Source: Candidatus Poribacteria bacterium (GTDB lineage: Bacteria; Poribacteria; WGA-4E; WGA-3G). From it: DNA of 64,000 nucleotides. The stretch spans positions 3,104,001-3,168,000 of the forward strand of contig OZ242029.1 of assembly GCA_965205015.1 (NCBI GenBank). The letters are read 5' to 3'. This document shows, in pieces, positions 6,962 to 27,400 of the stretch (positions within the stretch are counted from its first letter, which is position 1; each line of letters opens with the position of its first letter). The notes under the pieces were generated by a model. It saw only the letters and a program-made list of their open reading frames with translations, did not search any database and was not told the origin of the DNA. The position numbers were made by a program, and so were the translations under genes.

Positions 6962-7050
6962 CTTTTAATTATACCTTGCGGTTCGTTCAGGTGAATTAGT
7001 TAAATAACGGTGTCTGATGTATATCCGCGCCGTTGTTGCGGGCTACGGTT
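6962..7050 (-). repeat. Copy of the AACCGCAAGG-ended element abutting the GNAT start codon
   Basis: Minus strand reads GTAGCCCGCAAC..GCGGATATAC...AACCGCAAGGTATAATTAAAAG-ATG. Confidence 0.7.
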
Positions 7051-7106
7051 TTTGTATGATATCATTTCCGCAATTATACCATACCTCAAAAATTGGTGCA
7101 AAACCT

Positions 7107-7134
7107 TTGCAATATTTTTCAAAAATGTTATAAT
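7107..7134 (+). promoter_or_regulatory. Sigma-70-type promoter for aroKB
   Basis: TTGCAA-16-TATAAT with extended -10 TG. Confidence 0.55.
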
Positions 7135-7662
7135 GGTTATCAGTTATCAATTGTCGGTTGTCGGTTAACTTCTTTACCTGACGACTGATGACCGATAACT
7201 TTAACCATCAACTCGACTCGGTTATAAATGTTAAAGCACGAGTTGATGATTAAAACTATTATAGTAAAACCCGTAATTACTTATACACCAACATAAGGGC
7301 GAGGATACAATCCTCGCCAGCGGTGGTGGGGTGTTTGTTCCCCGACGAACTGTAAACATATTTTTGGATTTTACTATAAAAGGTGGAAATCCGGTGAATG
7401 GTTATCGGTTATCAATTGTCGGTTGTCGGTTAACTTCTTTACCTGACGACTGATGACCGATAACTTTAACCATCAACTCGACTCGGTTATAAATGTTAAA
7501 GCACGAGTTGATGATTAAAACTATTATAGTAAAACCCGTAATTACTTATACACCAACATAAGGGCGAGGATACAATCCTCGCCGGCGGTGGTGGGGTGTT
7601 TGTTCCCTGACGAACTGTAAACATATTTTTGGATTTTACTATTAAAAGGTGGAAATCCGGTG
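7132..7662. repeat. Tandem duplication, 265-bp unit x2 (7132-7396, 7397-7662)
   Basis: Near-identical copies; each holds a TTAACCATCAACTCG palindrome, a TATAG-ended MITE, and the aroK RBS plus GTG. Confidence 0.95.
7260..7378. mobile_element. 119-bp MITE with TATAGTAAAA(C/T)CC terminal inverted repeats (copies at ~7525-7642 and 27401-27519)
   Basis: TATAGTAAAACCC...GGATTTTACTATA with internal hairpin GGCGAGGATACAATCCTCGCC. Confidence 0.8.
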
Positions 7663-8220
7663 AAACGACCTGTTAAAAGAAGACCCAACATTGTGCTTGT
7701 CGGTTTTATGGGCACAGGAAAAACTTCTATCGGAAGACGGATCTCCTCACAACTTCGGATGCGCTACGTGGATACGGATGACATTGTTGAACGCGACAGC
7801 GGACGGCGCATCAGCGACATCTTCGCGGAGGATGGGGAACCTGCTTTTCGAGAGCTGGAGAGTGAAGCCGTTCGTAAGGTGTCGAGACTGCACAACGCCG
7901 TTATTTCCACCGGTGGCGGTGTCGTTTTGAAAGAAATCAATATGACAGAGTTAAAACGAAACGGCATTGTCTTCTGCCTCACGGCAACGGCGGAGGAGAT
8001 CTACAAACGGGTTGGACACCAGACACACCGACCCCTACTCCAGGCGCCTGACCCGCTGGCGACGATTCAGTCGATGTTGGCGGAGCGCCGTCCTTACTAT
8101 GCAGAAGCCGATCACATGATCAGTACAACGGGACGCTCATTCGGTGACATTACCACACACATCAAACGGATGTTTAGGAAGAAGAATGACGAACACCTTA
8201 CACGTGGAACTCGGGGATAA
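7660..8220 (+). CDS. aroK: Shikimate kinase
   Basis: GFMGTGKT, DTD, GEPAFRELE, STGGG, RPLL. Confidence 0.97.
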   Translation: MKRPVKRRPNIVLVGFMGTGKTSIGRRISSQLRMRYVDTDDIVERDSGRRISDIFAEDGEPAFRELESEAVRKVSRLHNAVISTGGGVVLKEINMTELKRNGIVFCLTATAEEIYKRVGHQTHRPLLQAPDPLATIQSMLAERRPYYAEADHMISTTGRSFGDITTHIKRMFRKKNDEHLTRGTRG

Positions 8221-9274
8221 CAGGTATCCACTCGTTGTTGGGACAGGACTCCTCAACAGCGTTGGAGAGTTCCTCACATCTCATACAAAATCGAATAAGG
8301 TGCTCATCGTTTCGGATACTTATGTCAAAACGTGCTATCTGCCCGTTGTTCTGAAGAGCCTCAAGGATGTCGGGCTCGATGCCTGCACGATTGAAGTGCC
8401 TGGTGGCGAAGAGAGTAAATCGTTGGCGCAGTTCTCCCGGATACAGGATAGTTTGGTGGAGCATCAACTCGATCGGGGTTCCCTGATCATTGCTCTCGGT
8501 GGGGGTGTCATCGGCGATTTGGCGGGATTCGCTGCAGCGGTATACATGCGGGGTATTCCTTACGTGCAGATTCCAACGACGCTACAAGCGCAAGTCGATG
8601 CGAGTGTCGGCGGCAAGACGGCGATTAATCACCCAAAAGGGAAAAACCTCATCGGTGCGTTTCATCAACCGAAGTTGGTCGTCATTGATGTAGATACGCT
8701 CAAGACTTTACCGCAGCGCGACATCCGAGCAGGACTTATTGAAGTTATCAAGATGGGTGTTATCCGCGATGCGCCGCTGTTTGAAAGGGTTGAAGAAGAT
8801 CTGGAGGCACTCTTAAACTTAGACGACACAACACTTATTGAAATAATCTCACAAGCGTGTGTCAACAAGGCGGAAATTGTCGCCAAAGATGAGAAAGAAA
8901 GTCGGCTGCGGATGGTGCTAAACTATGGGCATACCTTTGGACACGCCCTGGAGGCAGTGACGCATTACAATAGGTATCGGCACGGCGAAGCGGTTTCTAT
9001 CGGTATGAATTGCGCGGCGCAGTTGGCTGTCAATTTAGGGATGTTCTCTGAGACCGATTTTCAGCGGCAACGTGCACTCCTCAAGCGGGCACAATTGCCG
9101 ATTGCTTTACCCGCCGACCTCACCCCTGAAGCCCTATGTGATGCCATGTATTTAGACAAAAAGACGTTAGGGGGTAAACTCCGACTCATCTTGCCGACGT
9201 GTATCGGAGAAGTCGTTATCCGCGATGATATAGACGATCGGCGTGTTCTACAAGCTATAGGGCAATGTTTTTAA
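8186..9274 (+). CDS. aroB: 3-dehydroquinate synthase
   Basis: ALGGGVIGDLAGF, PTTLQAQVDASVGGKT, LNYGHTFGHALE. Confidence 0.97.
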   Translation: MTNTLHVELGDNRYPLVVGTGLLNSVGEFLTSHTKSNKVLIVSDTYVKTCYLPVVLKSLKDVGLDACTIEVPGGEESKSLAQFSRIQDSLVEHQLDRGSLIIALGGGVIGDLAGFAAAVYMRGIPYVQIPTTLQAQVDASVGGKTAINHPKGKNLIGAFHQPKLVVIDVDTLKTLPQRDIRAGLIEVIKMGVIRDAPLFERVEEDLEALLNLDDTTLIEIISQACVNKAEIVAKDEKESRLRMVLNYGHTFGHALEAVTHYNRYRHGEAVSIGMNCAAQLAVNLGMFSETDFQRQRALLKRAQLPIALPADLTPEALCDAMYLDKKTLGGKLRLILPTCIGEVVIRDDIDDRRVLQAIGQCF

Positions 9275-9311
9275 TATTTCGGAATTTATAAACAGATAGT
9301 TTGTTTCTGAT

Positions 9312-9629
9312 ATGGCACTCCTTGCTGAAATCCGCACAAAAATCAGAAATGGGCAGTTTGAGTTATCAGAACATGCGACTGAACAAAGCGGTATTCGTCA
9401 TATTAGTTTGCAAGAAGTTCGTCATAGTACCCCATGCTAAAGCATGGGGCTTGTTAGCGTGTTAGCTCCAACAAGCCTACCGGTCTACCGGTAAGTTTCT
9501 CGTTTCATAGAGGGTGGTAACCCAACGCTCTCCACGATGGGCGCGAGCTGCCCGTAAAAGTATGTTTATCGCTATGAACCTGATCCGTTACGATGGATTA
9601 ATTTCAAAACGAGGAAAAGACATGTCTGA
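9312..9629 (+). pseudogene. Interrupted DUF4258-like (putative toxin) gene
   Basis: N-terminal part MALLAEIRTKIRNGQFELSEHATEQSGIRHISLQEVR (from 9312) and C-terminal part YEPDPLRWINFKTRKRHV* (9573-9629), with the middle replaced; lies upstream of a YgiT-type gene. Confidence 0.7.
9421..9572. mobile_element. IS200/IS605-like non-autonomous end element
   Basis: GTCATAGTACCCCATGCTAAAGCATGGGGCTTG hairpin followed by GGCTTGTT..AACAAGCC stem; right boundary approximate. Confidence 0.55.
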
Positions 9630-9879
9630 CAACACGGTCTGGAATGAAACTTTAATAGAGAAAAATGTGACGTACACCATTGAGATAAACGGGCAATTCG
9701 TTCTGATTGAGAATGTGCCAGCCCGAGTTAACATTGATACAGGCGAAAAATACTTCTCGCCTGAAACTGTTGAGCGTTTACATCAAGCGGTGTGGGGCAA
9801 ATGCCACCCCGTTCGGACTATCATAACACCTGTGTACGAGTACACCGAATTGGTCCCAGAAAAAAACGCTACTCATTAA
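9622..9879 (+). CDS. YgiT-type (MqsA-like) small protein, putative antitoxin, lacking the zinc cysteines
   Basis: VTYTIEINGQFVLIENVPARVNIDTGEKYFSPETVERL pattern. Confidence 0.75.
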   Translation: MSDNTVWNETLIEKNVTYTIEINGQFVLIENVPARVNIDTGEKYFSPETVERLHQAVWGKCHPVRTIITPVYEYTELVPEKNATH

Positions 9880-9893
9880 GGAATATAACACTT

Positions 9894-11039
9894 ATGTCAA
9901 AAACAATTCAATGTGTAGTTGTCTGCTTGGTTTTATGCATGAGCGTTGGCATTGCATTCAGCCAAGGGCTTTCGCCACCCGCAAATGTCACGGCGGTAGA
10001 TACACCCAACGACGATGGCAGCAGCGTCACGATTCGCTGGGATGCTGCACCAGAAGGTAGCGGTATCAGCGGGTATCAAATCCTACGCCGGATTGCCGGG
10101 GGTGGTCTTGAAGAAATTGGCGAGATGTTATCTGCTGGAACAACCTCCTATGTTGATGCCTCTATCGAAAAAGGGAACGCTTACGCCTATATCGTGCGTG
10201 CCGTGAGCGACACAGAGGCAACGGTGGATTCTGGGGAGACCGCACCCGTTAGAGGGACGGGTGAATGGTTTCATACGGGTAGGATCCCGCTATTTGTCGC
10301 CATGTTTCTTTTTGGTGCCGCAGTTGTTTGGAACATCTATGATGCGAGAAGTGGTAAAGATATATTTGTCCGGCGCATTCCTGGGCTTGAGGCGGTCGAT
10401 GAAGCCATCGGTAGAGCCACAGAGATGGGACGCTCGATCCTCTACGTACTCGGATTAGGAGGCGTGAGCGGTACTGCCACTATTGCGAGTATGACGATTC
10501 TCGGGCAGGTAGCACGGAGAACAGCGGATTATGAAACGCCCCTGCGTGTACCGTGCCGAGACCCGATTGTGATGAGTGTGGTGCGTGAGATGGTGAAAGC
10601 CTCCTATCTTGATGAGGGACGTCCGGATGCCTACAATGAAGAAAATATTTTCTACCTCACTTCTGGTCAGTTCGCTTACGCGGCAGGCGTAGACGGAATG
10701 ATGATACGTGAGAAGCCGGCGGCAGTATTTCTACAAGGCACGTTTTACGCAGAATCGCTCATCCTTGCCGAGACCGGTAATTCTATCGGCGCGATTCAGA
10801 TTGCGGGGACGGATTCTGAGCATCAACTTCCCTTCCTAATCACAGCGTGTGATTATACCTTGATCGGCGAAGAACTTTATGCTGCAAGTACTTATTTGTC
10901 GAGGGAACCGATGCTACTCGGAAGCCTGAGGGGCCAAGACTGGGGAAAAGTCCTTATTTTCGCTATGATTGTGCTGGGCGTGGTTCTTGAACTATCTGGT
11001 GTCAGTTGGATCACAACACTCTTACAGCGGGTGGGTTAG
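9894..11039 (+). CDS. Signal peptide + fibronectin type III + TM + DUF6754-like domain protein
   Basis: PPANVTAVDTPNDDGSSVTIRW...YAYIVRAV (FN3); RRIPGLEAVDEAIGRATEMGR; IGEELYAASTYLS. Confidence 0.8.
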   Translation: MSKTIQCVVVCLVLCMSVGIAFSQGLSPPANVTAVDTPNDDGSSVTIRWDAAPEGSGISGYQILRRIAGGGLEEIGEMLSAGTTSYVDASIEKGNAYAYIVRAVSDTEATVDSGETAPVRGTGEWFHTGRIPLFVAMFLFGAAVVWNIYDARSGKDIFVRRIPGLEAVDEAIGRATEMGRSILYVLGLGGVSGTATIASMTILGQVARRTADYETPLRVPCRDPIVMSVVREMVKASYLDEGRPDAYNEENIFYLTSGQFAYAAGVDGMMIREKPAAVFLQGTFYAESLILAETGNSIGAIQIAGTDSEHQLPFLITACDYTLIGEELYAASTYLSREPMLLGSLRGQDWGKVLIFAMIVLGVVLELSGVSWITTLLQRVG

Positions 11040-11047
11040 GAGGTATT

Positions 11048-11698
11048 ATGCGACGACAAGTTCCCTTAATTCTCTGCTTTGTTTTTGGGGTCGTGATGAT
11101 GCTGACGCAGTTTAGTCCGCATTCCTTCTCGCAAGGTGTCTACGAAGAAGTGCTCAGTTGGACCCTGATTATTTTACCGTTTATGCTGGTATTAGGCACC
11201 GTGACACTCATCCAAACCCATGTGGCGCGTATTCGCCGCCGGGCTGAACATTGGCAGTACAGTTTTCTTATATTTGCGGGGATCCTCCTGATGGTAGTCA
11301 TCGGGATTCCGTTTGGACCCCAACACCCGATCTTCATGTGGTTATTCAATAACGTCCAGGTCCCTATGGATGCGACGATGTTTTCCCTCCTGGCTTTCTT
11401 CATTGCCTCAGCGGCGTACCGTGCCTTCCGCGCCCGAACGTTTGAAGCGAGTCTACTTCTTGTTACAGCCCTGATTGTGATGATGGGAAATGTGCCGATC
11501 GGAGATCTCTTTTGGAATACGGTTCTATCCGGGTTACCTTGGGACAACGGTCTCTCAGGTACGAAACAGTGGATTTTAGATAACCCGAATCTATCTGCGA
11601 GACGGGGGATCATCCTCGGCGTCAGTTTGGGCGCGATATCGCAATCTATACGAATTCTTTTGGGAATTGAGCGGTCCTATCTGGGGGGAGGAGATTAG
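11048..11698 (+). CDS. Uncharacterised multi-pass membrane protein
   Basis: GGAGG RBS; about 6 hydrophobic segments; ATMFSLLAFFIASAAYRAFRAR; ILLGIERSYLG. Confidence 0.85.
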   Translation: MRRQVPLILCFVFGVVMMLTQFSPHSFSQGVYEEVLSWTLIILPFMLVLGTVTLIQTHVARIRRRAEHWQYSFLIFAGILLMVVIGIPFGPQHPIFMWLFNNVQVPMDATMFSLLAFFIASAAYRAFRARTFEASLLLVTALIVMMGNVPIGDLFWNTVLSGLPWDNGLSGTKQWILDNPNLSARRGIILGVSLGAISQSIRILLGIERSYLGGGD

Positions 11699-11700
11699 AA

Positions 11701-12516
11701 ATGCTTGAAAAATTTATGAACATTGACCGGCGAATTATCTTCGTTTTGGTCGCATTGGCGGTCATTATTCCGACGTTGTTACCCATCAATTTGCCCGTCT
11801 CGGTATCTGCCCCGACGCGACAACTCCACGATTATGTCGATGCCCTCCCCGCAGGATCGAGGATCATGCTCGCATTTGACTATGGTCCTGCCTCTTTAGC
11901 GGAGCTCAATCCGATGGCAAAGGCGCTCCTGAAACAGTGTTTTGATAAAGATATCGGCGTCATCGGGATCACGCTCTCACCAGAAGGCACGGCGATGGGA
12001 AGCACACTAATACAGGAGATAGCGGATGAAACCGGGGCGATAGATGGTGAAGATTATGTGTTTCTGGGTTACCGTCCCGGTGACGAACTGGTTATCCTCG
12101 GCATGGGAACCGAAATCGCCAGTGTGTTTGAGACAGATTACAATGGGAAACCCTTGGCAGATATTCCGGTGATGGCGAACGTTACCAACTACGACCAAAT
12201 CAGTCTCCTTATTGACTTGGCTTCTGGAAGTACAACGGAAGTATGGATTACTTATGCGAACGTGCGTTACAATCTCCAAATTGCTGCTGGTGTCACCGGT
12301 GTCATTATCTCACAGATGTATCCGTACCTGCAAACCGGGCAATTGATCGGTCTGATTTCTGGGATCGCAGGTGCGGCTGAATATGAAAGCCTGCTGGATG
12401 CCCCAGCGAAAGGGATGCTGTGGATCAATATTGAATCCTTTGTGCATCTGTTGATTGCCGGTTTGGTGGTACTTGGGAATATTGCTTTCTTTGTCCAACG
12501 GCGAAAAGAGGAGTAA
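11701..12516 (+). CDS. Uncharacterised membrane protein (TM, soluble alpha/beta domain, TM)
   Basis: Starts 2 nt after the previous stop; DYVFLGY, PYLQTGQLIGLISGIAGAAEYE. Confidence 0.85.
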   Translation: MLEKFMNIDRRIIFVLVALAVIIPTLLPINLPVSVSAPTRQLHDYVDALPAGSRIMLAFDYGPASLAELNPMAKALLKQCFDKDIGVIGITLSPEGTAMGSTLIQEIADETGAIDGEDYVFLGYRPGDELVILGMGTEIASVFETDYNGKPLADIPVMANVTNYDQISLLIDLASGSTTEVWITYANVRYNLQIAAGVTGVIISQMYPYLQTGQLIGLISGIAGAAEYESLLDAPAKGMLWINIESFVHLLIAGLVVLGNIAFFVQRRKEE

Positions 12517-12520
12517 ATTG

Positions 12521-13171
12521 ATGGAAGTTTTTGGCATTTGGGTTGCAGCGTTTTTGACGCTTTGTATCTATAGTTTTCTTTATCGTGATAACCCATTTTA
12601 TCGGTTTGCGGAGTACCTCTTCGTAGGTGTATCGGTTGGGTACATATTCGTACTCACGACGCATCAAGGTTTTATTCCGTTGGCATGGAAACCCTTTTGG
12701 GCAGCTGTAACCGGGGAATCGCTCGTCGGGTTAATCAAACTGATTCCGATCTGCATCGGGTTACTCTTCTTTACGCGCTTTTCTCCACAACATGAGTGGT
12801 TGGTTCGTTATCCTATCGCTATTCTCATCGGTGCCAGTTCAGGACTTGCAATTCCGAATGTGTTACGCGCACATATTTTTGAGCAAACACGCGGAACAAT
12901 CGAACCCTTCGCGGCGATTCATGCAGGAACACTCTCTGCTGGTGAAATTTTTGGTGCGATCCTCATGGTGATTGGTGTTATCTGTACGCTCACTTACTTC
13001 TTCTTTTCTGTGGAGCATCGCGGCGTCGTCGGTGGACTCTCAAAGGTCGGTATCGCCTTTCTCATGATAGGGTTCGGTTCCGCATTCGGGAACACCGTTA
13101 TGGGACGTGTCGCGCTTTTGATTCAACGCGTCGATTTCCTCCTCAACGATTGGCTCGGCACAATTTTTTGA
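12521..13171 (+). CDS. Uncharacterised multi-pass membrane protein
   Basis: YSFLYRDNPFYRFAEYLFVGVSVG, LTYFFFS, FGSAFGNTVMGR. Confidence 0.85.
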   Translation: MEVFGIWVAAFLTLCIYSFLYRDNPFYRFAEYLFVGVSVGYIFVLTTHQGFIPLAWKPFWAAVTGESLVGLIKLIPICIGLLFFTRFSPQHEWLVRYPIAILIGASSGLAIPNVLRAHIFEQTRGTIEPFAAIHAGTLSAGEIFGAILMVIGVICTLTYFFFSVEHRGVVGGLSKVGIAFLMIGFGSAFGNTVMGRVALLIQRVDFLLNDWLGTIF

Positions 13172-13392
13172 CGTTTCTAACTATTAAGTTTCGGTTTTCT
13201 TGTGCTCTAAGTGTAAAGCAAAGACAAATTATGCCATTTTGAGTGAGATGGTTAGGATACCACAATCTGGGTTTAGAGAGTGGCCCGAATTTCCGATGGC
13301 AGTACAACCTGTTCTCTATGTTTTTAATCAGGGTGAATTAAGGTAATTTGTAAACCTTTATACTATTTGTTGCGTCACAATTGATAAAATGC

Positions 13393-13420
13393 TTGACAAA
13401 AAGTCTGAATAAACTAAAAT
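13393..13420 (+). promoter_or_regulatory. Sigma-70-type promoter
   Basis: TTGACA-16-TAAAAT. Confidence 0.55.
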
Positions 13421-13452
13421 TACACTCGAATTAACCAAATTGGAGATTTATC

Positions 13453-13680
13453 ATGGCACAAAGGAGAATGTCCATAGAGGAAATGATGCTGAAATATCCC
13501 GATCAGTGGTTGTTTATTACTGATTGTGAAGTCAGCGAAAATACTGAGCTAATATCGGGTGTCGTATTAGTGAACAGCCCATCCAGAGATGAGGTCTGTA
13601 AAGCCCTTACAAATCATAAGGGCGGATCCGCAATACGGTATACTGGGACGCTTCCAGAAGGGATGGCTTACTTACTCTAA
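13453..13680 (+). CDS. Small protein (DUF5678-like) paired with a retropepsin-like gene
   Basis: GGAG RBS; KYPDQWL..GVVLVNSPSRDEV..YTG pattern. Confidence 0.7.
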   Translation: MAQRRMSIEEMMLKYPDQWLFITDCEVSENTELISGVVLVNSPSRDEVCKALTNHKGGSAIRYTGTLPEGMAYLL

Positions 13681-13865
13681 TGGGACATACTCGTTTTGAT
13701 GGAAATGGTTCATCCATAAAACTAAACTTGGTAGTAAGCAGTATGGATTTAACTTCCTATACTAATGTTTTAGTGGCGTTAGATACTGGAGCTTGTGTTA
13801 CATCTATACCGACGTATATCGCTGAGGCTTTAGGTTATGACCTTTCCGATGATTGTAGCGAATAA
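13680..13865 (+). pseudogene. Truncated retropepsin-like aspartic protease
   Basis: ALDTGACVTSIP..AEALGY motif; only 61 aa, lacks the C-terminal xLGxD motif. Confidence 0.65.
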
Positions 13866-13875
13866 AAAAGAAAGA

Positions 13876-13915
13876 AAAAATTTGGCTGCCTTAGCAATAA
13901 GGTAGCCAAATTTTT
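13876..13915. terminator. Bidirectional intrinsic terminator
   Basis: AAAAATTTGGCTGCCTTA-gcaa-TAAGGTAGCCAAATTTTT. Confidence 0.8.
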
Positions 13916-13975
13916 ATCCGGACCCGCTTGCCTTATACATTACCCATGACGTTTAACCGCAAGGAAAATTAAAAA

Positions 13976-14818
13976 ATGAAAATTGGATATAGCACATGGG
14001 GCATGCCCACCGTCCCGATAGACACAGCACTTTCCCATCTCGCGAGCCTCGGATACGATGGTGTTGAACTCACCATCATTCCACGCTTTACCACCGAACT
14101 CAGCACGCTTGACGCTGCAGAACGAAAACGAATTGCATCCCTGTTCCAAGGGCATAACTTGGCACTCCCCGCCATTGCGGCACATTCCAGTCTGTTGGAG
14201 ATGGATCCAGAGACCCATTCGAAAAATATGTGGCGACTGAAAGGCGGTGTTGATTTGGCAGTTGAACTCGCACAGGGGGACGAACTGCCCGCTGTCAATA
14301 CGACGCCGGGGGGAAAGCCAGAAGAATGGGAGTTTAAGAAGGATTTCCTCGCAGAACGCGTGGGGGAACTCGTCGATTACGGGGCATCGCGCGGGGTTAC
14401 CATCGCGATGGAACCGCATGTCGGTGCGATCATTGATACACCTGCGAAGGTGCTTGAACTCTTAGAAATCGTCAATTCGCCGTATCTCAAAGTTAACTTC
14501 GACATCAGTCATTTCGATATTATCGGTATGTCGACAGAGGAAACGGTGTCGGCGTTAGCACCGGTATCGGCACATACACACGTCAAGGACCAGCGCGGCA
14601 CTGCCCCCGACCACGAGTTCCTCATCCCCGGCGAAGGTCCTTTCGATTACGTTGACTACCTCAAGCGGATGCAGGCACACGGTTATGACGGATTCATCAC
14701 TGCCGAAGTGAGTTTCATGGTGCAGGCACGTGAGGACTACGATCCGCTCGCCGCCGCGACACTCTCTTACGAAACATTAGCGAACGCTTTTGAAGAAGCC
14801 GGAATTGAACGAGGATAA
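13976..14818 (+). CDS. Sugar phosphate isomerase/epimerase (xylose isomerase-like TIM barrel)
   Basis: GYDGVEL, MEPH, NFDISH, HTHVKD, GYDGFITAE. Confidence 0.9.
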   Translation: MKIGYSTWGMPTVPIDTALSHLASLGYDGVELTIIPRFTTELSTLDAAERKRIASLFQGHNLALPAIAAHSSLLEMDPETHSKNMWRLKGGVDLAVELAQGDELPAVNTTPGGKPEEWEFKKDFLAERVGELVDYGASRGVTIAMEPHVGAIIDTPAKVLELLEIVNSPYLKVNFDISHFDIIGMSTEETVSALAPVSAHTHVKDQRGTAPDHEFLIPGEGPFDYVDYLKRMQAHGYDGFITAEVSFMVQAREDYDPLAAATLSYETLANAFEEAGIERG

Positions 14819-14820
14819 CG

Positions 14821-18144: not shown

Positions 18145-18257
18145 TGCCCAGAAATGCCCGATACAGGTAATTTCCGAGTGGCACAACCGTGAATTGCCCG
18201 AAATTGTGCAAACGGATGCGTGCATTGCACAAAATAGGACAGGCAGGAATCAATGGA

Positions 18258-18971: not shown

Positions 18972-19027
18972 TTTTAAATTCTCCGTTTGTTTTAGTAGTT
19001 GTGTGTATAACTGTGAGTGAGAATGTT

Positions 19028-20023
19028 TCACATAACCCCGATGCCGGGTCGGTTTGGTAGTATCAATTGACCCTTATCAAGGGTAACACCGGTGTGGGGA
19101 TCGTTCGCAATGAGCAGATGGCCATCCAGATCGGCATAGTCTACGAGAGGCGTCAGGTGTGCGGCGGCGGTGATACCGAGCGAACTCTCTATCATGCAAC
19201 CGATCATGACGAGTAAGCCGTGTGCGCGTGCAACGTTTATCATGCGATGCGCCTCAAGCAACCCACCACACTTGACGAGTTTGATATTGATGCCATCAAC
19301 ACACGCAGCAAGAACCGGAATATCACTTGCGCGTTTGACGCTTTCATCGGCAATAATCGGCAGTTCCGAGTGTTCTCGGACGAACTTGAGTCCGGTGAGA
19401 TCATTGGGTTGTGTGGGTTGCTCGACTAATTCTACACCATACTTGGCAAGTTCGCGAATCTTGCGGACGGCCTCCTTTGGTGTCCACGCCGTATTGGCAT
19501 CTACATAGATAGGTTTATCCGTGACCTCGCGGAGTTTCTGAATTATCTCAATATCTTGCGGTGTCCCGAGTTTGACTTTCAGGATCGGATACGCTTCGGT
19601 ATGTCGTGTCTTCTCTGCCATTATCTCAGGCGCATCCAGTCCAATGGTAAACGATGTACAAGGGGTCTGATGCGGATTGAGCCCCCAGAGTTGATAGAGC
19701 GGAACGCCAAGTTTTTTACCGAGTCGATCGTGGAGTGCCATATCAATAGCGGACTTCGCTGCGTAATTGCCGCCGAGCGTCGCTTCAACGATCCCCATCA
19801 CATCGTGGATTGCATCCAGGTCCTTGGGAAGTGCCGGTGCGACAATCTCCAGCGCAGCGCTAACTGTTTGGACGGTTTCGCCGTAAAACCGAGCGGGTGC
19901 CGTTTCACCGATGCCACCATCAATCTCTACAGAAATCACCTGTCGGGACGCATCTATCGCACGCCGCGCAATCTTGAACGGGTGCTGGAGCTGTAAATTT
20001 GTGATGTTAGAGACAATGTTCAT
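19028..20023 (-). CDS. Dipeptide epimerase (L-Ala-D/L-Glu epimerase family)
   Basis: KVKLG, VDAN, EQP, ADES, NIKLVKCGG, DLDG. Confidence 0.92.
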   Translation of the reverse strand: MNIVSNITNLQLQHPFKIARRAIDASRQVISVEIDGGIGETAPARFYGETVQTVSAALEIVAPALPKDLDAIHDVMGIVEATLGGNYAAKSAIDMALHDRLGKKLGVPLYQLWGLNPHQTPCTSFTIGLDAPEIMAEKTRHTEAYPILKVKLGTPQDIEIIQKLREVTDKPIYVDANTAWTPKEAVRKIRELAKYGVELVEQPTQPNDLTGLKFVREHSELPIIADESVKRASDIPVLAACVDGINIKLVKCGGLLEAHRMINVARAHGLLVMIGCMIESSLGITAAAHLTPLVDYADLDGHLLIANDPHTGVTLDKGQLILPNRPGIGVM

Positions 20024-20100
20024 TTTAGAGTCATCGGTTATCGGTTGTCAGTTATCGGTTACTATCGTCAACGGTTATCTATTTGCGTTGACAACGCCTT

Positions 20101-22344
20101 CTACCTTTGCTGCATTTCTTTTGCGTATGCCATAAACCGCTGTTGTTTTTCTGCGGCAATTTCTCCATCGTTCTTTAGGAAAGTCCACGCCCCGAAGAAG
20201 ATCGCATGTGCTTCCGACGCGATGGAAGCGTTCGGATGATTCAAAGATCGGATTTCAAGTATCATCGCCATTTTGTTTGTCTGCTGGATTTCAGGGGTCG
20301 TTCTGTCTTGAACGGTAACAATCGGGGTTTCATAGAGGGTCCTATTGAACCGTTCCAATATCCGTTTTAGAAACATCTCTGTGCCTTGGTTACCCCGATA
20401 ATGTGCCGCAGCCACAGTGGGTTGCTCTTTATCCCATTCGGCGTGATTAATTTGCAAATAGTACCCGCTACCCTTGATAGCGTTAACCGTCTCTATCCGT
20501 TTTTCAACAGACATTTTTGATCCGAAAGTATAAATATTATAAACCTTTGCCCCGGCGAGTTTCAACATCTTTTCCAATCTTGTGATGAGCTTCTGTGTCT
20601 CAGGTGTATCCGTTTGTGAATCGAGCACAATGACGGTCGAGGCAAACGCCCCATCTGCAATCGGGTGAAGTCCGACATCAACGACTGTCGCTTGATTTTG
20701 TCGAATGTGAATCCTACGTTTATCTGGATAATAGCCTGCTTTGGAGATGTGAAGTGTTGTGTCACCGAAACCCTTACCAGTTGTGATAAAAAAGTGTCCC
20801 TCGGCATCTGTCGTCGCCGTCAATCCCGAATCGGTTTGTAATTGTGCGTCTTGGAGTGGTTTTTTAATTTTTCTTTGCGGTTCGCTGCGGTGAGTTTTGG
20901 CATCTGATGTGCCATTCCGTCCAGGCTCCCTCGATTTTATTACGGGGTGTGTATTTTGGATTTTGGGAGGAATATGGGAAACTTGACCTTGCACAATCGC
21001 GTCGTTGATCTCCGCGAAGTGAATTGTCAACGCCTGACGCGCCTGTCGATATGAGGCTTCTACTGTCGCTGTGCCCGGCGTATCAGAGGCGTATAGATAA
21101 AACTGTGCCGAGCCGTTCTTTGAAAGTTGACACGCCTCTGTGAGTGTCCCGTTCGACGTTTGTGCGTGGATCGGTTCATCGTCCGCAATTGGCATCCCCT
21201 CAATGTCTTGTGCAGTTACAGAGATACCAACGTAGCTTTTCCCATCAGCAGGGAGAGTCTCTGTCCACGCGTTGAGATCCAACGCCGCTGCAGGGGGTGC
21301 CACCTTAAACCATTGCGGTGAAGGGAGACTGTGATTTCCATAATAATTCACCAATTCGGTCTGCACAAGATGCACGCCATTGGATAACGGTTTCTCAATG
21401 GAGACAGTAATCTGATCTGTCCCGGGATCGTAGTCGTGGGGGACATTCACATTATCAACCTTAACTCGGATGGCGTCAGTGAAGACCTGTTGACGTTTGA
21501 GCATCCACGCGCCCCGCTCATGGAGCCCATCCATCACCTGAATCCGAAGGCGCGGGGTTTTCGTTTGGGTGACAGAGGCGTGTTGCGGTTCTATCAGAAC
21601 ACCTTTCGGAAATCCGCCTTCAACGTAACGGGCAATCCCCAAAAAATAACCGTATGCCTCCTTTCTCAGATAGTCGTCCGCTTTCAGTCTCGCCTCTTCC
21701 TCTGGATGTGAGAGAAAAGAGGCTTCACACAAAACCGCTGGACATTCGGTCAGTCGCAGGACTCCAAAACCGGAAGTCGTTACTAATTTATCTGAGTAAA
21801 GTCCGGATGCAGGAGAGGTCGGCAATTGGAGTGCGTCTGAGACCCCCAGCTGGACATACCGAGCGAGGTCAAGACTCTGGCGTGAGTCATCCGCGTCGCC
21901 GTGATACCAAGTAGAGGTATAGTTAACTTTCGGATTATTAATCCCATTATGGTGCAGCGAGATGAAGAAATCAGCGCTGTTTTCGTTGGCAATTTGGCTG
22001 CGCCTCGCCAGACTCACATAAGCATCATCAACGCGCGTCATAATAACGGTAGCCCCGACTTGTTGTAACATCTCGCGTAGGTGGGAAGCTACCCGTAGAT
22101 TAATCTCAGCTTCGCGAACGCCTGTTGGACCCCGCTTGTAATCCGGTATGTGCCCTTGTCCGCCATGTCCGGGATCCAGGCAAATTGTGAAACCTTTGAG
22201 ATGCCGAGCATAAGGAGGCGGTTCAAAGTGAAAAGGGAGTTGTTGTTCCACAGGTTCTTGACGTTGGGAACAACCCGCAAGTAGCAGAAAAACCAAAAGG
22301 AATTTTAATTTTTCCTTGCGGTTCGATGCGGTGGGTTTTGACAT
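20101..22344 (-). CDS. N-acetylmuramoyl-L-alanine amidase lipoprotein, multidomain
   Basis: LLAGC lipobox, LDPGHGG, ISLHHN, AVLCE; Ig-like and carboxypeptidase-regulatory-like domains; degenerate second amidase-like domain. Confidence 0.88.
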   Translation of the reverse strand: MSKPTASNRKEKLKFLLVFLLLAGCSQRQEPVEQQLPFHFEPPPYARHLKGFTICLDPGHGGQGHIPDYKRGPTGVREAEINLRVASHLREMLQQVGATVIMTRVDDAYVSLARRSQIANENSADFFISLHHNGINNPKVNYTSTWYHGDADDSRQSLDLARYVQLGVSDALQLPTSPASGLYSDKLVTTSGFGVLRLTECPAVLCEASFLSHPEEEARLKADDYLRKEAYGYFLGIARYVEGGFPKGVLIEPQHASVTQTKTPRLRIQVMDGLHERGAWMLKRQQVFTDAIRVKVDNVNVPHDYDPGTDQITVSIEKPLSNGVHLVQTELVNYYGNHSLPSPQWFKVAPPAAALDLNAWTETLPADGKSYVGISVTAQDIEGMPIADDEPIHAQTSNGTLTEACQLSKNGSAQFYLYASDTPGTATVEASYRQARQALTIHFAEINDAIVQGQVSHIPPKIQNTHPVIKSREPGRNGTSDAKTHRSEPQRKIKKPLQDAQLQTDSGLTATTDAEGHFFITTGKGFGDTTLHISKAGYYPDKRRIHIRQNQATVVDVGLHPIADGAFASTVIVLDSQTDTPETQKLITRLEKMLKLAGAKVYNIYTFGSKMSVEKRIETVNAIKGSGYYLQINHAEWDKEQPTVAAAHYRGNQGTEMFLKRILERFNRTLYETPIVTVQDRTTPEIQQTNKMAMILEIRSLNHPNASIASEAHAIFFGAWTFLKNDGEIAAEKQQRFMAYAKEMQQR
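20860..20965 (-). repeat. AACCGCAAGG-family element inserted in-frame in the amidase
   Basis: Aligns along its length with 22302-22404. Confidence 0.8.
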
Positions 22345-22418
22345 TTGACGGACCTTTCCGTATATCCGCTCTCCATTTCATTACGAGTTACGCGTTCTGG
22401 TTTTTTAATTTTTCCTTG
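22302..22418 (-). repeat. AACCGCAAGG-family element containing the amidase start codon
   Basis: Plus strand TTTTAATTTTTCCTTGCGGTTCG...TATATCCGC...TTACGAGTTAC; other copies at 22885-22980, 25664-25748 and 27302-27390. Confidence 0.8.
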
Positions 22419-22883
22419 TCACTGACGGTTGGTGGCTGACCCTTGCCTTGTTCGGCGTGCTTTCGGACGGCCAAGGATCTCGGAAAGAATGATGCCTTGG
22501 CGAAAAGTTTGCGGCGACAAGTTCAGCAGTGATGTCGCTGGGACAGATCGCGTCTTGGTTGGCGAATCTACAGGCACTGGCGGCGGTTGGGGACCCGGTG
22601 TCTCAACAACCGGATCGGGGTTCTCCGGTTCAGGAGGTATGGGTTCTTCGACGGCCGGCACATCCTCTTTTTCATCCTGCTGCTGAATCATCTGCTCTAA
22701 TTGCGTCTCAAACGGGAAATCTTCCATGAAAGGAGGGGGTGTATCCTCGCTCTCCGCCATTGCACGCTCGTCCATTCCTCTTTCAACCTTCTGTTGCTGT
22801 GCTTTCCGCCGCCGCGCGTTGCTCAAGATAGATATCAGAATCACGATAATCAGGGGTGCCAGCATCTGGATGATACTTTCCAT
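22419..22883 (-). CDS. YqfB-like single-pass membrane protein of the floA operon
   Basis: N-terminal TM, Pro/Glu linker, C-terminal RQGIILSEILGRPKA. Confidence 0.7.
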   Translation of the reverse strand: MESIIQMLAPLIIVILISILSNARRRKAQQQKVERGMDERAMAESEDTPPPFMEDFPFETQLEQMIQQQDEKEDVPAVEEPIPPEPENPDPVVETPGPQPPPVPVDSPTKTRSVPATSLLNLSPQTFRQGIILSEILGRPKARRTRQGSATNRQ

Positions 22884-23106
22884 GTTTTAATTATTCCTTG
22901 CGGTTCGGTTAGCGGGCGTAGGGTTTTAATGTTGCTTTCCGTATACCCGCTTTCCACTTCGTTTCAAGCTACGCGCTTTTTCTAAAAAGTGTGCTAAAAT
23001 CCGTAAAGGTATTGACAACTTTAGAACACTTCCTAACTTTAGAACACTTCGAAACTCTACAGAGACTTTAAAACTTCCCGACGACTGAAAACCGACACCC
23101 TTTTTC

Positions 23107-24138
23107 CTATGAAAATCCGAGCGAGTGTGCAGACCGCGTTGTGTCTATCTCTTGCGTGCCACCGGGTGAAGCGATCGACTGACGCATCTCTGTATCGGCG
23201 AGGATATTACGGAGTTCGTAATACGTCATCACACTCATCCGCTGAGAATCAAAGGTGTCCGAAATGGCAAGTGGCACCTCGGCTTCTGCCTCGATGAGTT
23301 TGACGGTCATCTCTTCAACTAACGCTTTCTTCTCTTCCTCTTCGGCTTGTGCGCGTGCGCGACGTTCCTCCGCTTTCGCGCGTGCGATCTTGAGTTCAGC
23401 CTGCGCTTGATCGGTCTGTAATTTCGCACCGACATTCTCACCAACATTTATATCGGCGATGTCAATAGACAGAATTTCGAAGGCAGTTCCCGCCGCTAAA
23501 CCCTTTGCGAGCACCGTCTCTGAGATGAGGACCGGGTTTTCTAAAACCTGCTTATGACTCCCCGATGAGCCGATTGTCGTAATAATCCCTTCACCGACCC
23601 TTGCCCGGATCGTGTCTTCAGTTGCGCCGCCGACGAGTCGATCAATATCGGCTCTCACCGTAACACGCGCCTTCACGATTAACTGGATACCATCACGCGC
23701 AACAGCGGTGATACCAGTGGTCGGGTCATCTCGACTCGGGATGTCTATAATCTCAGGTGTAACGCTGACCTGCACGGCTTGCAGGACATCTCGACCTGCG
23801 AGATCAATTGCGGCAGCCTGCGCGAAACCGAGATCAATGTTGGCTTTGTCGGCGGCAATCAGGGCAGATACGACACTCGCCACGCGCCCTCCGGCAAGGA
23901 AATGTGCCTCCAGATCGTCAAGAGATAGATTTAATCCTGCTTTCGTTGCGTTGATCTGAGGTTCTACAATCACAGCGGGTGGAACACGCCGCAAACGCAT
24001 TGCAACGAGGTCAAAAATCCCGACCCTCACACCTGCCGCGATCGCAGTAATCCATAGACCGATCGGAACGAGCCAACTAATAATGATGATGAACAGTATA
24101 AGCAGGACGGCAATAATTGCGATCATTGTTGGTGCCAT
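23107..24138 (-). CDS. floA: Flotillin-like protein FloA (paralog 2)
   Basis: [45 protein letters not shown]. Confidence 0.92.
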
Positions 24139-24140
24139 GT

Positions 24141-25046
24141 TTACGATTCCTCCGTATTAACGTTCAAGTTCCCTTCACGGAACGCGTTTGCCAAAGAACG
24201 CGGGACTTGCGCTTCCGCTTCAACGACTTTCGCACGCATCTCTTGGACGCCTGCAGTCATCTCCTGTTTCCGAGCGACTGCCATAGCCCGTCGTTCTTCT
24301 GCTTTCGCTTGTGCGACGACCAAGTCAGCCTCCGCTTGTTCGGCTTGGAGTTCCGCACCGATATTTTTGCCAACGTTGACGTCAGCAATATCAATCGAAA
24401 GGATTTCAAAAGCCGTTCCGGCATCAAGTCCGCGGTCAAGCACCGTTTTCGAGATAATGTCAGGATTTTCAAGGACATCTTCATAGGTTTCAGAGGCACC
24501 GATTGCGCTGATAATCCCTTCACCGACGCGGGCGATGATCGTTTCTTCCCCCGCGCCGCCGACGAGCCGATTGATGTTCGTACGCACCGTAATACGGACG
24601 GTGGTTATCAATTCAACGCCATCTAAGGCGAGCGCACTGATTTTCGGGGTCGTGATCACCCGTGGATTGACGCTGACCTGAACCGCCTCAAAGACATCCC
24701 GTCCAGCCAAGTCTATAGCAGCCGAACGTTGAAAATTCAATTCAATTCTCGCTTTATCTGCCGCGATGAGCGCACTGACCACATTGAGGACGTTGCCACC
24801 CGCCAGGTAATGCGCCTCTAATTCGGCGGTCACGACCTTCAATCCCGCCTTGTGTGCACTGATTAATCCCTTCACAATGATATTCGGGTTCACGCGTCTG
24901 AGGCGCATCCCGATCAAGTCAAAAATTCGGAGAGGAACTCCCGCTGCTACAGCGGCAATCCACAGTCCAACGGGGACGAACCAGAAGAACACGATGATAA
25001 AAATGAGAACAACAAGGGCAATTCCCCCCGTAAATATATCTATCAT
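24141..25046 (-). CDS. floA: Flotillin-like protein FloA (paralog 1)
   Basis: [38 protein letters not shown]. Confidence 0.93.
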
Positions 25047-25159
25047 ATCTGTCTCCTACGAATCGTTTTCAGTTTTCAGTTTTCAGTTTTCAGTTAAAAG
25101 AGAGTTGCCAGAGTTCTAATATCTCTTGTAACGGATTGCTAACGGCTGATTGCTGACGG

Positions 25160-25645
25160 CTATTGCAAACTACGGACTACGACACGACTGCCTTCTACAA
25201 AAATTACTTCGATTTCCGTTTCTGCGGGAACAAAGTCGCCTTCCGTGACAATATCAACACGGTGTCCACTGATAAGAGCAGCCCCTGCCGGACGGAGCGG
25301 TGTCAAGGTCTTACCAGACTTTCCAACTAAATTTTCCAATTCCGACGGAGGTGCGTGGAACCCCTCTGCCTTGTTTTGCGTTTTCCCCAAGATAAAGGTT
25401 TTACCGGCAGGCGTCTCACGCATGACCGATAGCCCGACAATCGCGAGTGGGATAACGCCTATCAGCGTTGCCCCTGTATATGTTAGTGCCATCTGGAATC
25501 CGAATTCCAACCAGGCGACCCCGACACCTATCACTATAAGGATCCCGCCCGGCACGCCTGCTGCCCCGAATCCGGGAAGAATGAGCAACTCAACGAATAC
25601 TAACAGAATTCCAATGCCTATCAGGAAGATGAGAAACCAGAGCAT
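25160..25645 (-). CDS. Short NfeD family protein (TM plus OB-fold)
   Basis: ELLILPGFG, GKTLTPLRPAG, DIVTEGDFV. Confidence 0.9.
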   Translation of the reverse strand: MLWFLIFLIGIGILLVFVELLILPGFGAAGVPGGILIVIGVGVAWLEFGFQMALTYTGATLIGVIPLAIVGLSVMRETPAGKTFILGKTQNKAEGFHAPPSELENLVGKSGKTLTPLRPAGAALISGHRVDIVTEGDFVPAETEIEVIFVEGSRVVVRSLQ

Positions 25646-25818
25646 AGGTGTTCCTCCAAACCGTTTTTTAAATGTTCCTTGCGGTTCGGTCAGGTGTATT
25701 ATGCGTTGGGCACTTATTTACGTATATCCGTTGTTGCAGGCTACGTGTCTGGTAGAAAGTTTTAAAGTGTTCTAAAGTTTGTAAAGTCTCAAGCGCGTCT
25801 CATTAAACTTTCGTCACA

Positions 25819-27342
25819 TTAATCATCCTCAACGGCTTCTACGAAAACCTTAGAGCCTTCCACACTGACGACTTTAACGTTGCTATCTTGTGCAATGAAA
25901 TCGCCGACGGTGACGACATCCACCCGATTATTCGCGATTCGAGCCGTTCCGGAGGGACGCAACGGTGTCAGTGCCGTTCCGGATTTTCCGAGATACGCCT
26001 GAAAGTCCTCCGAGCTCGACGAATAGTACCCGCTCTCAGTGTCCATCACGGTTGACAAAGCAAGCCTCCGGAAAAGTTGGGTCTCCGGTAGATAGAAAGC
26101 GGCGAGAATCACCAGTCCGGCGCTCAAAATTACAGAGATCGAGAGCCACATGACAGCGGTACGGAACTCATAAGCCTTGTCGAAAACGAAGAAGATACTT
26201 CCGATCATCAGCGTGATGCCAAGAATTCCAGCAACACCGAAACCGGGGATGACGAAGACCTCTAAAGCGATAAGTCCAAGTCCAAGCAGAAAGAGTAGGA
26301 ATGCCCATTCCGCTCCGATTTTCGTCAACATGTGTCCACCGAAGAAAAGCCCTACACACAGTAAACCGAGGAATCCAGGGATACCGAAACCGGGCGTGCG
26401 AATTTCTATAAAGATACCGAGGATTCCTAATGAAAGGAGCAGCGAACTGATGAGCGGATTCGTGATAAAGAAAACAATTCTATCCGCAAGTGTCGCTTCA
26501 ACCTCCGTAATACGTGCGCCTGCTAACGTTTTTAGCCGGTTGATCTCTGAAATACCAAAGTCGCGCTTTCGTTGTGCAATGCCGTCCTCTGTGAGCGGGA
26601 GTTTGGTGCCATCTACCTCAACAATTTCGTATTGTGCTAAGAGTTCTGTGAGGGTTTCGGCTTGTGCGTCTGCGAACCCGTATTCTAATGCCTGTTGCGT
26701 TGATAGCGTGAGGAGTTTCCCTTGGGCACAGAGGATTTCCATCTCTTCGCCATCTTCTTCACGCCCAGCGTATTCTTCGGGTAGGAGTTTGATAATCTGG
26801 CCATCTGCGAGTTTTACGAGGACGAGTTCTTTGTCTACCATCGCTTCGGCGATATCCGGGTTCCGATTCTCGCGTTCTGCCGTCGCACGGATCGTTCCCT
26901 GAATATAGGAGATTGCCTTTTCGCCAACCTCCTGCCCTTGAATATTCACGGGTGCCGAGTCCCCAATTGTCCCGCCCGAAGTCATAGCGATCTGATTACA
27001 AGCGATAGAAATCATCGCTCCGGCGGATATAGCCTGTCGATTGACAAAAGCGATTGTGGGAATTTGTGTATCCTGAATGGATCGGATGATGTTTACGGCG
27101 GAATCTACTCGACCGCCCGGTGTATCTACATCGAAAACAATAGCATCGGCACCCGCCTGCTCGGCTGTTTGGATGCCATCACTGATGTAGGTACCGAGTC
27201 CGCTCCCGATCTCATTCCGAATGTCAATCACGTAAACCTGTGCGGGGTCCTGAGCGGACAGATCGCCAGTCATGAAAAGACATCCGATAAACAGGAACAC
27301 ATTTTTTAATTTTACCTTGCGGAGAAATGAAATGGGTTTCAT
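25819..27342 (-). CDS. nfeD: Long NfeD (ClpP-class protease domain, TM, OB-fold; YqeZ-like)
   Basis: DTPGGRVD, AISAGAMI, PGFGIPG, LTPLRPSG. Confidence 0.9.
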   Translation of the reverse strand: MKPISFLRKVKLKNVFLFIGCLFMTGDLSAQDPAQVYVIDIRNEIGSGLGTYISDGIQTAEQAGADAIVFDVDTPGGRVDSAVNIIRSIQDTQIPTIAFVNRQAISAGAMISIACNQIAMTSGGTIGDSAPVNIQGQEVGEKAISYIQGTIRATAERENRNPDIAEAMVDKELVLVKLADGQIIKLLPEEYAGREEDGEEMEILCAQGKLLTLSTQQALEYGFADAQAETLTELLAQYEIVEVDGTKLPLTEDGIAQRKRDFGISEINRLKTLAGARITEVEATLADRIVFFITNPLISSLLLSLGILGIFIEIRTPGFGIPGFLGLLCVGLFFGGHMLTKIGAEWAFLLFLLGLGLIALEVFVIPGFGVAGILGITLMIGSIFFVFDKAYEFRTAVMWLSISVILSAGLVILAAFYLPETQLFRRLALSTVMDTESGYYSSSSEDFQAYLGKSGTALTPLRPSGTARIANNRVDVVTVGDFIAQDSNVKVVSVEGSKVFVEAVEDD

Positions 27343-27400
27343 GGTGAATTACCTTTCTTAAATCCGCCTTTCACTTCGTTACAGGCTTGGTATTGTGTGT

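Follow-up and report, generated by a model that had tools for sequence, protein, structure and literature searches.

What does a repeat of about 100 nt do in a bacterial genome when copy after copy of it ends at the first codon of a gene? The question is raised by a 64,000-nt stretch of a Candidatus Poribacteria bacterium (contig OZ242029.1, positions 3,104,001 to 3,168,000; hereafter the window), in which an initial annotation had listed eight diverged copies of such an element and proposed a mobile, possibly structured RNA leader, domesticated as a portable ribosome-binding site (RBS) or as the n-region of signal peptides. We examined this element in the window and in five complete genomes of Poribacteria relatives (G001 to G005), which are 77-92% identical to the window in the matched syntenic segments (window 3.7-16.3 kb and 20-28 kb). 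Our reading is that of a clade-specific interspersed repeat whose 3′ tail, set against start codons, likely constitutes the RBS region of the downstream gene, while the repeat itself most likely forms part of the transcript, as its 5′ leader or as a spacer between cistrons (probability about 0.7).

The eight listed copies are real. Searching the window for the pattern AACCGCAAGGWWNWWTTAAA (at most two mismatches) returned eight matches (5815+, 6964-, 13955+, 20863-, 22304-, 22886-, 25667- and 27305-), whereas 0.03 were expected and no more than one was found in any of 100 shuffles, and a covariance model built from 69 copies (alignment A2), then run on the window and the genomes, recovered all eight at 24-92 bits along with two weak tail fragments. 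The core CCGCAAGG occurs nine times in the window vs. 1.7 expected, seven of the nine being inside element copies. Aligned, the eight copies yield a consensus of ~100 nt (CGTAGCCCGTAAC..GAGAGCGGATATACGG..AAAACCCACC..CGAACCGCAAGGAAnAATTAAAA), composed of a 5′ GTAG-headed covarying hairpin, a variable middle and a near-invariant 3′ tail, GAACCGCAAGG-WWNWW-TTAAAA.

In three copies an ATG directly follows the element, as had been annotated. A full copy at 6959..7055 (-, 75.1 bits) has the tail TTAAAAG and then the ATG (6961) of a GNAT gene (6365-6961); another at 22881..22981 (-, 92.3 bits) has TTAAAAC and then the ATG (22883) of a 154-aa gene (22419-22883); and a partial copy at 13905..13978 (+, 24.3 bits), with tail and body and a different head, runs straight into the ATG at 13976, where a gene for a xylose-isomerase-like TIM barrel starts. 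Two open reading frames (ORFs) begin inside the element, again as annotated: the full copy 22299..22400 (-, 91.3 bits), just 3′ of the remnant tail of an older tandem copy (~22404-22425), contains the amidase start codon (22344) and would encode MSKPTASNRKEKLK, and the full copy 27300..27398 (-, 69.5 bits, TCTCCGCAAGG subtype) contains the ATG (27342) of NfeD1b and would encode MKPISFLRKVKLK. A copy with a shortened hairpin (25662..25753, -, 62 bits) lies 26 nt 5′ of a small NfeD gene (25160-25645), which has kept its own GGAGG site between this copy and its ATG. The copy listed at 20860 (20858..20959, -, 73.1 bits) is genuine as well, but instead of preceding a gene it occupies an in-frame position within the amidase ORF (20101-22344, 747 aa), where it separates the Big_1 domain from the CarboxypepD_reg domain and reads ..EPQRKIKK... 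The eighth, a full copy with an extra insert in its hairpin (5733..5839, +, 44.2 bits), precedes position 6962, from which the element had been annotated, and is antisense to both neighboring genes; the complement of its tail TTAAAG is the TAA stop codon of a GNAT gene (5830-6357, -). Just 5′ of it is a solo tail, GAAAAGGAAAAATTAAAAA (5680..5710, +, 17.6 bits, E 0.17), and a weak tail fragment, ..AAAGGTATACTTAAAA (3..48, +, 14.8 bits, E 0.79), truncated by the start of the window, ends at the ATG of an ORF at 45-1718.

To estimate how often the element meets a start codon, we used as an unbiased sample the 41 model matches (E <=0.1) in a contiguous, unselected 400 kb of G001, and scored a copy as docked when a start codon at the last 3-4 positions of the model opened an ORF of >=70 codons. 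By this measure 20 of the 41 copies were docked; mirroring the end gave 0 of 41, and positions drawn at random gave 152 of 4100 (3.7%). Among 128 copies retrieved by their tail, 62 had an ATG, GTG or TTG 0-3 nt after TTAAAA (ORF >=60 codons), 44 of these at offset 1. Orientation is equally non-random, with 34 of the 41 sampled copies pointing toward the downstream ORF (binomial p = 1.3e-5) and 32 lying between two ORFs of their own sense; the random orientation and position that would have spoken against the initial reading are thus not what this sample shows. The genes served have little in common: 23 of 25 downstream proteins have Pfam families, which come from unrelated pathways and include inositol monophosphatase, CstA, sulfatase, a PurQ-like amidotransferase, NuoE, NuoH, NuoN, TruD, ABC transporter parts and peptidase M16. 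In several docked proteins (CstA, Sulfatase, GATase_5, Pectate_lyase22) the Pfam model starts at residues 1-5, as expected if translation truly begins at the docked ATG. In-element start codons lie 38-61 nt 5′ of the tail end, and three of the six such starts in the sample precede hydrophobic segments.

The case for a role in translation initiation comes from orthologous sites in the six genomes, where the same ATG can be immediately preceded by the element in one genome and by a canonical GGAG-type site in another. The 154-aa gene has a full element in the window, G001 and G002 and a 35-nt tail only in G004, while G003 and G005 have AAAGGAGAAAACG-ATG in its place. For the GNAT gene starting at 6961, five genomes carry the element and G002 has a 43-nt leader with AGGAGAAGGCAG-ATG and no element; a promoter, TTGCAC-N17-TATAAT, is found upstream in all six (in the window, a promoter-like TTTGCA-18-TATAAT lies at 7102-7073, -, 5′ of the copy 6959-7055). 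The small NfeD gene has the GGAGG site alone in G002 and the element followed by the same GGAGG site in the window, and a tail abutting the ATG in the other four genomes (a short tail in G001, an 18-nt mini-tail in G003 and G005, a full copy in G004). At orthologous genes, the element thus replaces canonical GGAGG-type sites, as expected of the portable RBS that had been proposed.

The suggestion of a portable n-region is supported by two genes, in the amidase as the charged start of a lipoprotein signal peptide. Four genomes start the amidase inside the element (MSKPTASNRKEKLK or MPKP..), G002 and G005 have no element and start with MARLFHKISVI, and the same hydrophobic LLVFLL..AGC lipobox segment follows either N-terminus. 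For NfeD1b, five of six genomes keep ATGAAACCCATTTCATTTCTCCGCAAGG.. open and MKPISFLRKVKLK readable, G004 having no alternative start after the tail, and G001 has no element, AGGGAG-N8-ATG and the N-terminus MGRKTHLPIY; the NfeD1b promoter TTGACG-N18-TATAAT (window 27598-27569) is present upstream with or without the element. Because promoters are conserved upstream of these sites whether or not a copy is present, the element most likely lies inside the transcript. As to the internal amidase copy, the window, G002, G003 and G004 keep it in an open frame, G001 has a degenerate version, and 18 nt are all that is left of it in G005. Contigs from four DNA runs were compared as well; they cross-map among copies and break at them, and depth spikes in the bins that contain copies report copy number only; in run X4, from a relative (organism B), one contig joins 20861 to 20978 and skips 20862-20977, i.e., the internal amidase copy, in agreement with the copy-free state of G005.

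A simple mechanism can be proposed from these observations. The 16S rRNA of G001 ends in GGATCACCTCCTTTCT, with the canonical ..GGAUCACCUCCUUUCU, so that the AAGGA of the tail could pair with UCCUU in the 16S 3′ end (..CCUCCUUUCU). As AAGGA already lies 11-12 nt before the tail end, it would serve only a start codon 0-3 nt past the tail, which would account for the sharpness of docking. Two stable states are then predicted, namely a tail docked on an ATG without any other Shine-Dalgarno (SD) site, or an element farther upstream combined with a separate GGAG-type site. Both occur: there are docked tails without another SD, and undocked copies with a site of their own, such as copy 25664 of the window and, in G001, copies with ..AAAAAGGAGATATACTATG or ..AAGGAGATTTTGAATG behind them. 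Two of the three tail frames are open and lysine-rich (NRKEKLK, EPQGKIKK); for this reason a start codon arising inside the element would yield a usable, charged signal-peptide n-region, and an in-frame copy could survive in a protein linker. An inverted copy, in turn, can end a convergent gene with the TAA complementary to TTAAAA, as is seen for three of the seven sampled copies that face a convergent ORF.

Several points weigh against this reading. AAGGA is a weaker SD match than the GGAGG of other genes, and its spacing of 11-13 nt compares with 5-10 nt elsewhere in the window, where genes without the element have GGAGG-type sites 5-10 nt before the ATG. The invariance of CCGC and TTAAAA exceeds what an SD needs, which suggests another constraint (such as a protein, or a site that is cleaved or targeted). 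Exact docking could in part reflect an insertion-site preference rather than function, and the copy at the 5700 site fits exactly between a TTAAAAA that was there before it and an ATG at which no gene begins. In the G001 sample, the seven copies mentioned above (of 41) point at a convergent gene, and for nine of 41 there is no start of the same sense close by. Simple ORF rules, rather than a gene finder, were used to call gene starts. Finally, the tail contains a -10-like hexamer.

This last point raises the alternative that the 3′ part is a promoter, with (T/C)(T/C)CACC as -35, WANAAT in the tail as -10 and transcription beginning at the docked ATG itself, so as to give a leaderless mRNA. TTCACC-16-TATAAT was indeed flagged inside the copy 6959-7055, where the -10 stops 7 nt short of the ATG; positions 2 and 6 of the -10-like hexamer in the tail are invariably A and T, respectively, and the fixed 1-nt offset to ATG would fit a leaderless start. 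However, the commonest -35 equivalent is CCCACC, which matches at two of six positions, there is no TG extension, a promoter scan of 20000-27700 flagged none of the six copies there, and 32 of the 41 sampled copies lie between same-sense ORFs, often <100 nt from the upstream stop. Canonical promoters are moreover conserved upstream of two copies, the in-element starts would require a transcript that begins farther upstream, and the invariant spacer GAACCGCAAGG would be left unexplained. We consider a promoter role most improbable, and favor a tail that acts in the transcript as part of an RBS.

Does the element act as a folded RNA, as its description as a possibly structured leader implied? 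Its parts run from an optional 5′ extension (..CCAAAAC) through the GTAG hairpin, GGATATACGG, ~25 variable nt and AACCCACCTGACC to the tail. Across the 69 diverse copies one helix alone covaries, the hairpin right after the GTAG head, which takes two main forms, GCCTGC-AACAACGGC-GCAGGC and GCCCGTAACGAAGTGGAGGGC. Seven of its eight pairs show double changes (e.g., C-G 33 / U-A 30 at one pair, and C-G 52 / U-A 13 at the loop-closing pair), 80% of cells pair, a share that falls to 23-35% if the partner is offset by 1-3 columns, and the covariation score was reached by 0 of 500 shuffles. An outer helix around this hairpin, CGTA/TACG, was considered and rejected (0 of 4 pairs doubly changed, 17-21 of the 69 sequences unpaired). 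The pairings GGCGG:CCACC and ACCU:AGGU (an anti-SD mimic) gave no signal among the top mutual-information pairs, and the CC-GCAA-GG mini-hairpin, annotated as a GNRA tetraloop, does not vary among copies. The RNAalifold consensus has five pairs only (-2.1 kcal/mol), single copies (n = 12) fold no better than shuffles (z -1.8 to +1.5, mean -0.47), and Rfam returned no match, either for the whole window at gathering score or for 20800-27500 at E up to 5. Since there is one covarying helix, a weak consensus fold and shuffle-like folding of individual copies, the element is a hairpin plus conserved linear sequence and not a compact structured RNA; of the proposed structure, the 5′ hairpin is the part that finds support.

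These results also bear on the idea of a cis-regulatory RNA leader (riboswitch-like, an attenuator, or a platform for an RNA-binding protein or small RNA) that would put hundreds of genes under one post-transcriptional signal. Such a leader would agree with the way copies lie in sense within 5′ leaders and between cistrons, with the covarying hairpin, with the invariance of the core CCGCAAGG, which overlaps the SD-like AAGG (69/69 and 68/69 at two C-G pairs), and with a CACCU anti-SD-like box 18 nt 5′ of that core. A single covarying hairpin (the CGTA/TACG helix having no double changes), the weak folding and the lack of any Rfam match over the ranges searched nevertheless fit such a leader poorly, as do the functionally unrelated downstream genes, the 5′ two-thirds being dispensable in 16 of 34 tails, and the predicted translation of parts of the element in some genes. 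This makes a regulatory leader distinctly improbable, and a linear tail with a putative RBS, behind a hairpin, is the reading that we retain.

How the repeat came to occupy so many sites is a separate matter. The 5700 site carries a ~129-nt insertion (~5708-5836) in the window, G002 and G003 that is absent in G001, G004 and G005; G001 and G005 have a solo tail only, and the insertion falls exactly after its TTAAAAA. Because presence and absence vary gene by gene, several independent gains or losses must have occurred since the genomes diverged. The element is a mosaic, with optional 5′ modules (..GACGYTTCTTTTCTC.., ..CCAAAAC), alternative GTAG hairpins in some copies, and other small repeats inserted between the hairpin and GGATATACGG in others. 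Heads are nearly always accompanied by a tail within 120 nt (13 of 15, the other two having decayed tails), whereas only 18 of 34 tails have a head; this excess of solo tails could result from selection on the tail or from 5′-truncated insertion. Head-to-tail tandems are frequent, with many pairs and triplets and, at one locus (L072), seven copies at a 142-nt period. We found no terminal inverted repeats in alignment A2 (the consensus ends, 5′ ..CCAAAACCGTAGCC and 3′ ..CCGCAAGGAAAAATTAAAA, are not complementary) and no regular target-site duplication in the flanks of 61 full copies, 10 of which have an upstream tail-like stretch that is a tandem-copy remnant. Most likely, copies would spread by inserting beside TTAAAA tails already in place and by duplicating locally in tandem, and would then lose their 5′ part but keep the tail.

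Much of this could also be expected of a purely selfish single-stranded DNA element moved by a Y1 transposase (HUH-type, IS200/IS605-like or related to the REP-associated tyrosine transposases, RAYTs; REP, repetitive extragenic palindrome), in which docking would reflect target choice (3′ of YAAAA/TTAAAA) plus tolerance, with no role in translation. The GTAG-headed 5′ hairpin, whose covariation preserves structure over sequence, resembles REPs, the substrates of RAYTs, including those beside RAYT-like genes in the same genomes, and the 5700 insertion placed precisely behind a TTAAAAA that was already present, the common head-to-tail tandems (up to the seven at L072, with two or three copies at many loci), the lack of terminal inverted repeats and of a clear target duplication, and the docking of inverted tails to stop codons all fit such an element. 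Each of the five genomes has 5-8 Y1_Tnp matches (32 in total), from which 21 distinct loci were fetched. Yet none of these 21 loci has a Y1 gene flanked by this hairpin; model matches near Y1 loci occur at background (2 in 40 kb, 3 in 47 kb) and never as flanking pairs, and a hairpin motif scan of 14 Y1 loci gave no positive, some of those loci being flanked by other GTAG REPs. Further, orientation follows the local gene and probably not the replication arm, with 24 plus- and 17 minus-strand copies interleaved in the 400 kb of G001 in step with gene direction; where a canonical SD was replaced, the gene lacks any further SD-like sequence and is still intact and conserved; and tails outlive heads, as expected under tail selection. 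A purely selfish element is therefore improbable in our view, and a tail maintained for translation initiation the better account. Of the mobility that had been proposed, presence/absence differences and copy number remain as support, and no transposase could be linked to the element. As a separate observation, RAYT-like Y1 genes of 160-220 aa occur at L147, L143, L148, L151 and L154 (G001, G003), and the REP arrays inverted around them have GTAG types of their own (CCGTAGGGGTGC.., GTAGGTGCGGTTTGCAACCGCACC and GTAGGTCGGGTAGAGCGTAGCGAAACCCGAC).

To evaluate the distribution of the element, we scanned public prokaryote genomes (one per species) with the 22-nt tail GAACCGCAAGGWWNWWTTAAAA, and found at least 118 stretches with the tail; among the matches listed, 78 of the 80 titled loci were from Poribacteria metagenome-assembled genomes and two from an “uncultured bacterium”. 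In G001 to G005, respectively 150, 150, 150, 150 and 149 of 150 scored candidates fit the model. Density is about one copy per 10 kb in the 400-kb sample of G001 (37 of the 41 matches at E <0.001), and counting exact matches to the 17-nt tail GCAAGGWWNWWTTAAAA across this 5.5-Mb genome gave 298 (151 forward, 147 reverse) vs. 0 for a reversed-pattern control. Within the phylum, 53 of 120 sampled Poribacteria genomes match and 67 do not; all 33 scored candidates match in 34 of the 53, and four non-matching genomes contain 0, 0, 0 and 2 exact tails. With more than half of the sampled genomes lacking any match and these four nearly devoid of tails, the whole element, tail included, is a property of one Poribacteria clade and not a phylum-general type of RBS. 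Full-text searching, with most subscription journals outside its coverage, found no publication on such an element in Poribacteria.

Comparable elements are known elsewhere. Neisseria REP2 repeats (120-150 bp, ~26 copies per genome) carry a promoter, RBS and ATG directly upstream of genes, and are regarded, according to Delihas (2011, PMC3184786), as a duplicated 5′ untranslated region, partly translatable and tied to one contact-induced regulon. The same review describes IR-A/IR-B of Borrelia plasmids (~180 bp, few and on plasmids only), with a promoter, RBS, ATG and two stem-loops near the 5′ end, and mentions the Correia elements of Neisseria. These are abundant, small miniature inverted-repeat transposable elements (MITEs) that are cotranscribed and alter expression signals. 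Compared by description only, the Poribacteria element resembles REP2 in lacking terminal inverted repeats, in its 5′-end stem-loop, in standing upstream of unrelated genes and in carrying an RBS or start, and resembles IR-A/IR-B in its position immediately upstream of genes and its RBS/ATG. It likewise ends at gene starts far more often than random positions do (20 of 41 copies vs. 3.7%) and takes the place of SD sites. On the same descriptions it differs from REP2 in its number (~300 exact tails and roughly 500 model matches per genome), in lying mostly between co-directional genes, and in its solo tails, in-frame internal copies and supply of stop codons. As for a promoter of its own as in REP2, there is one internal promoter-like match (copy 6959-7055) and none in the six copies of 20000-27700, and the conserved promoters lie outside the element.

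Other families share further features. REPs are palindromes of 20-40 nt that have no polar RBS tail and are not docked to start codons. With REPs and bacterial interspersed mosaic elements (BIMEs) the element shares the GTAG head and imperfect palindrome with compensatory changes (..CGTAG-CCYGNAAC...GNRGG-C in alignment A2), mosaic modules, tandem clusters and intercistronic positions; unlike them, it has no cognate RAYT flanked by the same hairpin at the 21 Y1 loci, and is not strictly extragenic, with one in-frame copy and two that hold start codons. Rickettsia palindromic elements (RPEs) are short and palindromic overall, can be inserted in frame within genes and translated, and are not known as start-docked RBS carriers; the in-frame copy 20858-20959 of the amidase gene is RPE-like, while docking to start codons sets the element apart. 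Correia elements end in inverted repeats, duplicate a TA target and insert in either orientation, whereas the Poribacteria element is polar and without such repeats, and so is not a MITE. Its closest relatives are thus REP2 and the Borrelia IRs and, for the hairpin, REP/BIME, the Poribacteria element being far more abundant and more versatile.

It is tempting to go further, and to view the element as a self-targeting mobile cassette that inserts behind TTAAAA tails, building head-to-tail arrays and homing to gene boundaries. Such a cassette would have standardized the translation initiation of several hundred genes in one clade, overwriting native SD sites and donating start codons, n-regions, linker peptides and stop codons, with the hairpin perhaps serving as a decay barrier for the upstream cistron and with spread through a single-stranded (Y1/HUH-type) or RNA-mediated mechanism not yet described. 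We offer this broader scenario tentatively and regard it as rather unlikely in its entirety.

The same DNA contains other small repeats. A classic GTAG REP family, often paired, occurs at window 28217-28349, 31527-31649, 32670-32779, 39366-39418 and 61780-61832 (the other strand reads GTAGGGGCAGGTCTTGTGCCTGCCC), and a 22-25-nt insert (GGGGTTTTTGCTTGGGTGTTTCCCC or its complement) is found at a fixed point inside these REPs (28240-28269, 61803-61832). The leader element too harbors the GGGGTTTTTGCTTGGGTGTTTCCCC insert, placed between its hairpin and GGATATACGG (L047, L056, L079, and the NfeD1b leader of L164); this insert has the look of a separate, very small unit of insertion. A second intergenic element consists of runs of 7-nt repeats (AACTGAA / CAGCAAT / GTTATCA-like) around a short hairpin, often ending at an ATG or before a GGAG site (window 25050-25160, 7136-7167, 7401-7432 and 20030-20061; the amidase start of L162/L165; the FloA starts of L162-L165), and recalls the TAACTGA direct repeats of Beggiatoaceae (PMC4679880). 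A 250-nt repeat with a hairpin, GGCGAGGATACAATCCTCGCC, and promoter-like hexamers forms a tandem at 7132-7381 and 7397-7646 (98% identity), with a third copy (61%) at 27273-27522; in one case the repeat separates the NfeD1b promoter from the leader element. Tandem 8-nt GGTTGGAA-type units (15 overlapping 62-nt copies) fill window 4501-4710, in an ORF with a PMT_2 domain (3782-5734, -), and window 39142-39344 holds three exact or near-exact 58-nt tandem repeats, each with a hairpin, GGCGAGGTTAGAAACCTCGCC. Finally, two adjacent FloA (flotillin-like) genes (23107-25046) come after two NfeD genes, in a cluster that is syntenic in all five relatives.

Several consequences follow for work on these genomes. 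Gene finders will misplace starts at such loci, the 747-aa amidase and NfeD1b being examples, and short-read assemblies break at copies. The tail is a ready marker of this clade, and studies of spacing and context can draw on several hundred naturally occurring versions of a single translation-initiation region. Comparable upstream repeats are known, but at a few dozen copies only. If the tail is a working RBS, a mobile repeat would have rewritten the translation signals of about one gene in 10-20 across a clade of uncultivated sponge symbionts, and would have edited protein N-termini, linkers and stop codons as well, on a scale well beyond the few dozen copies of REP2.

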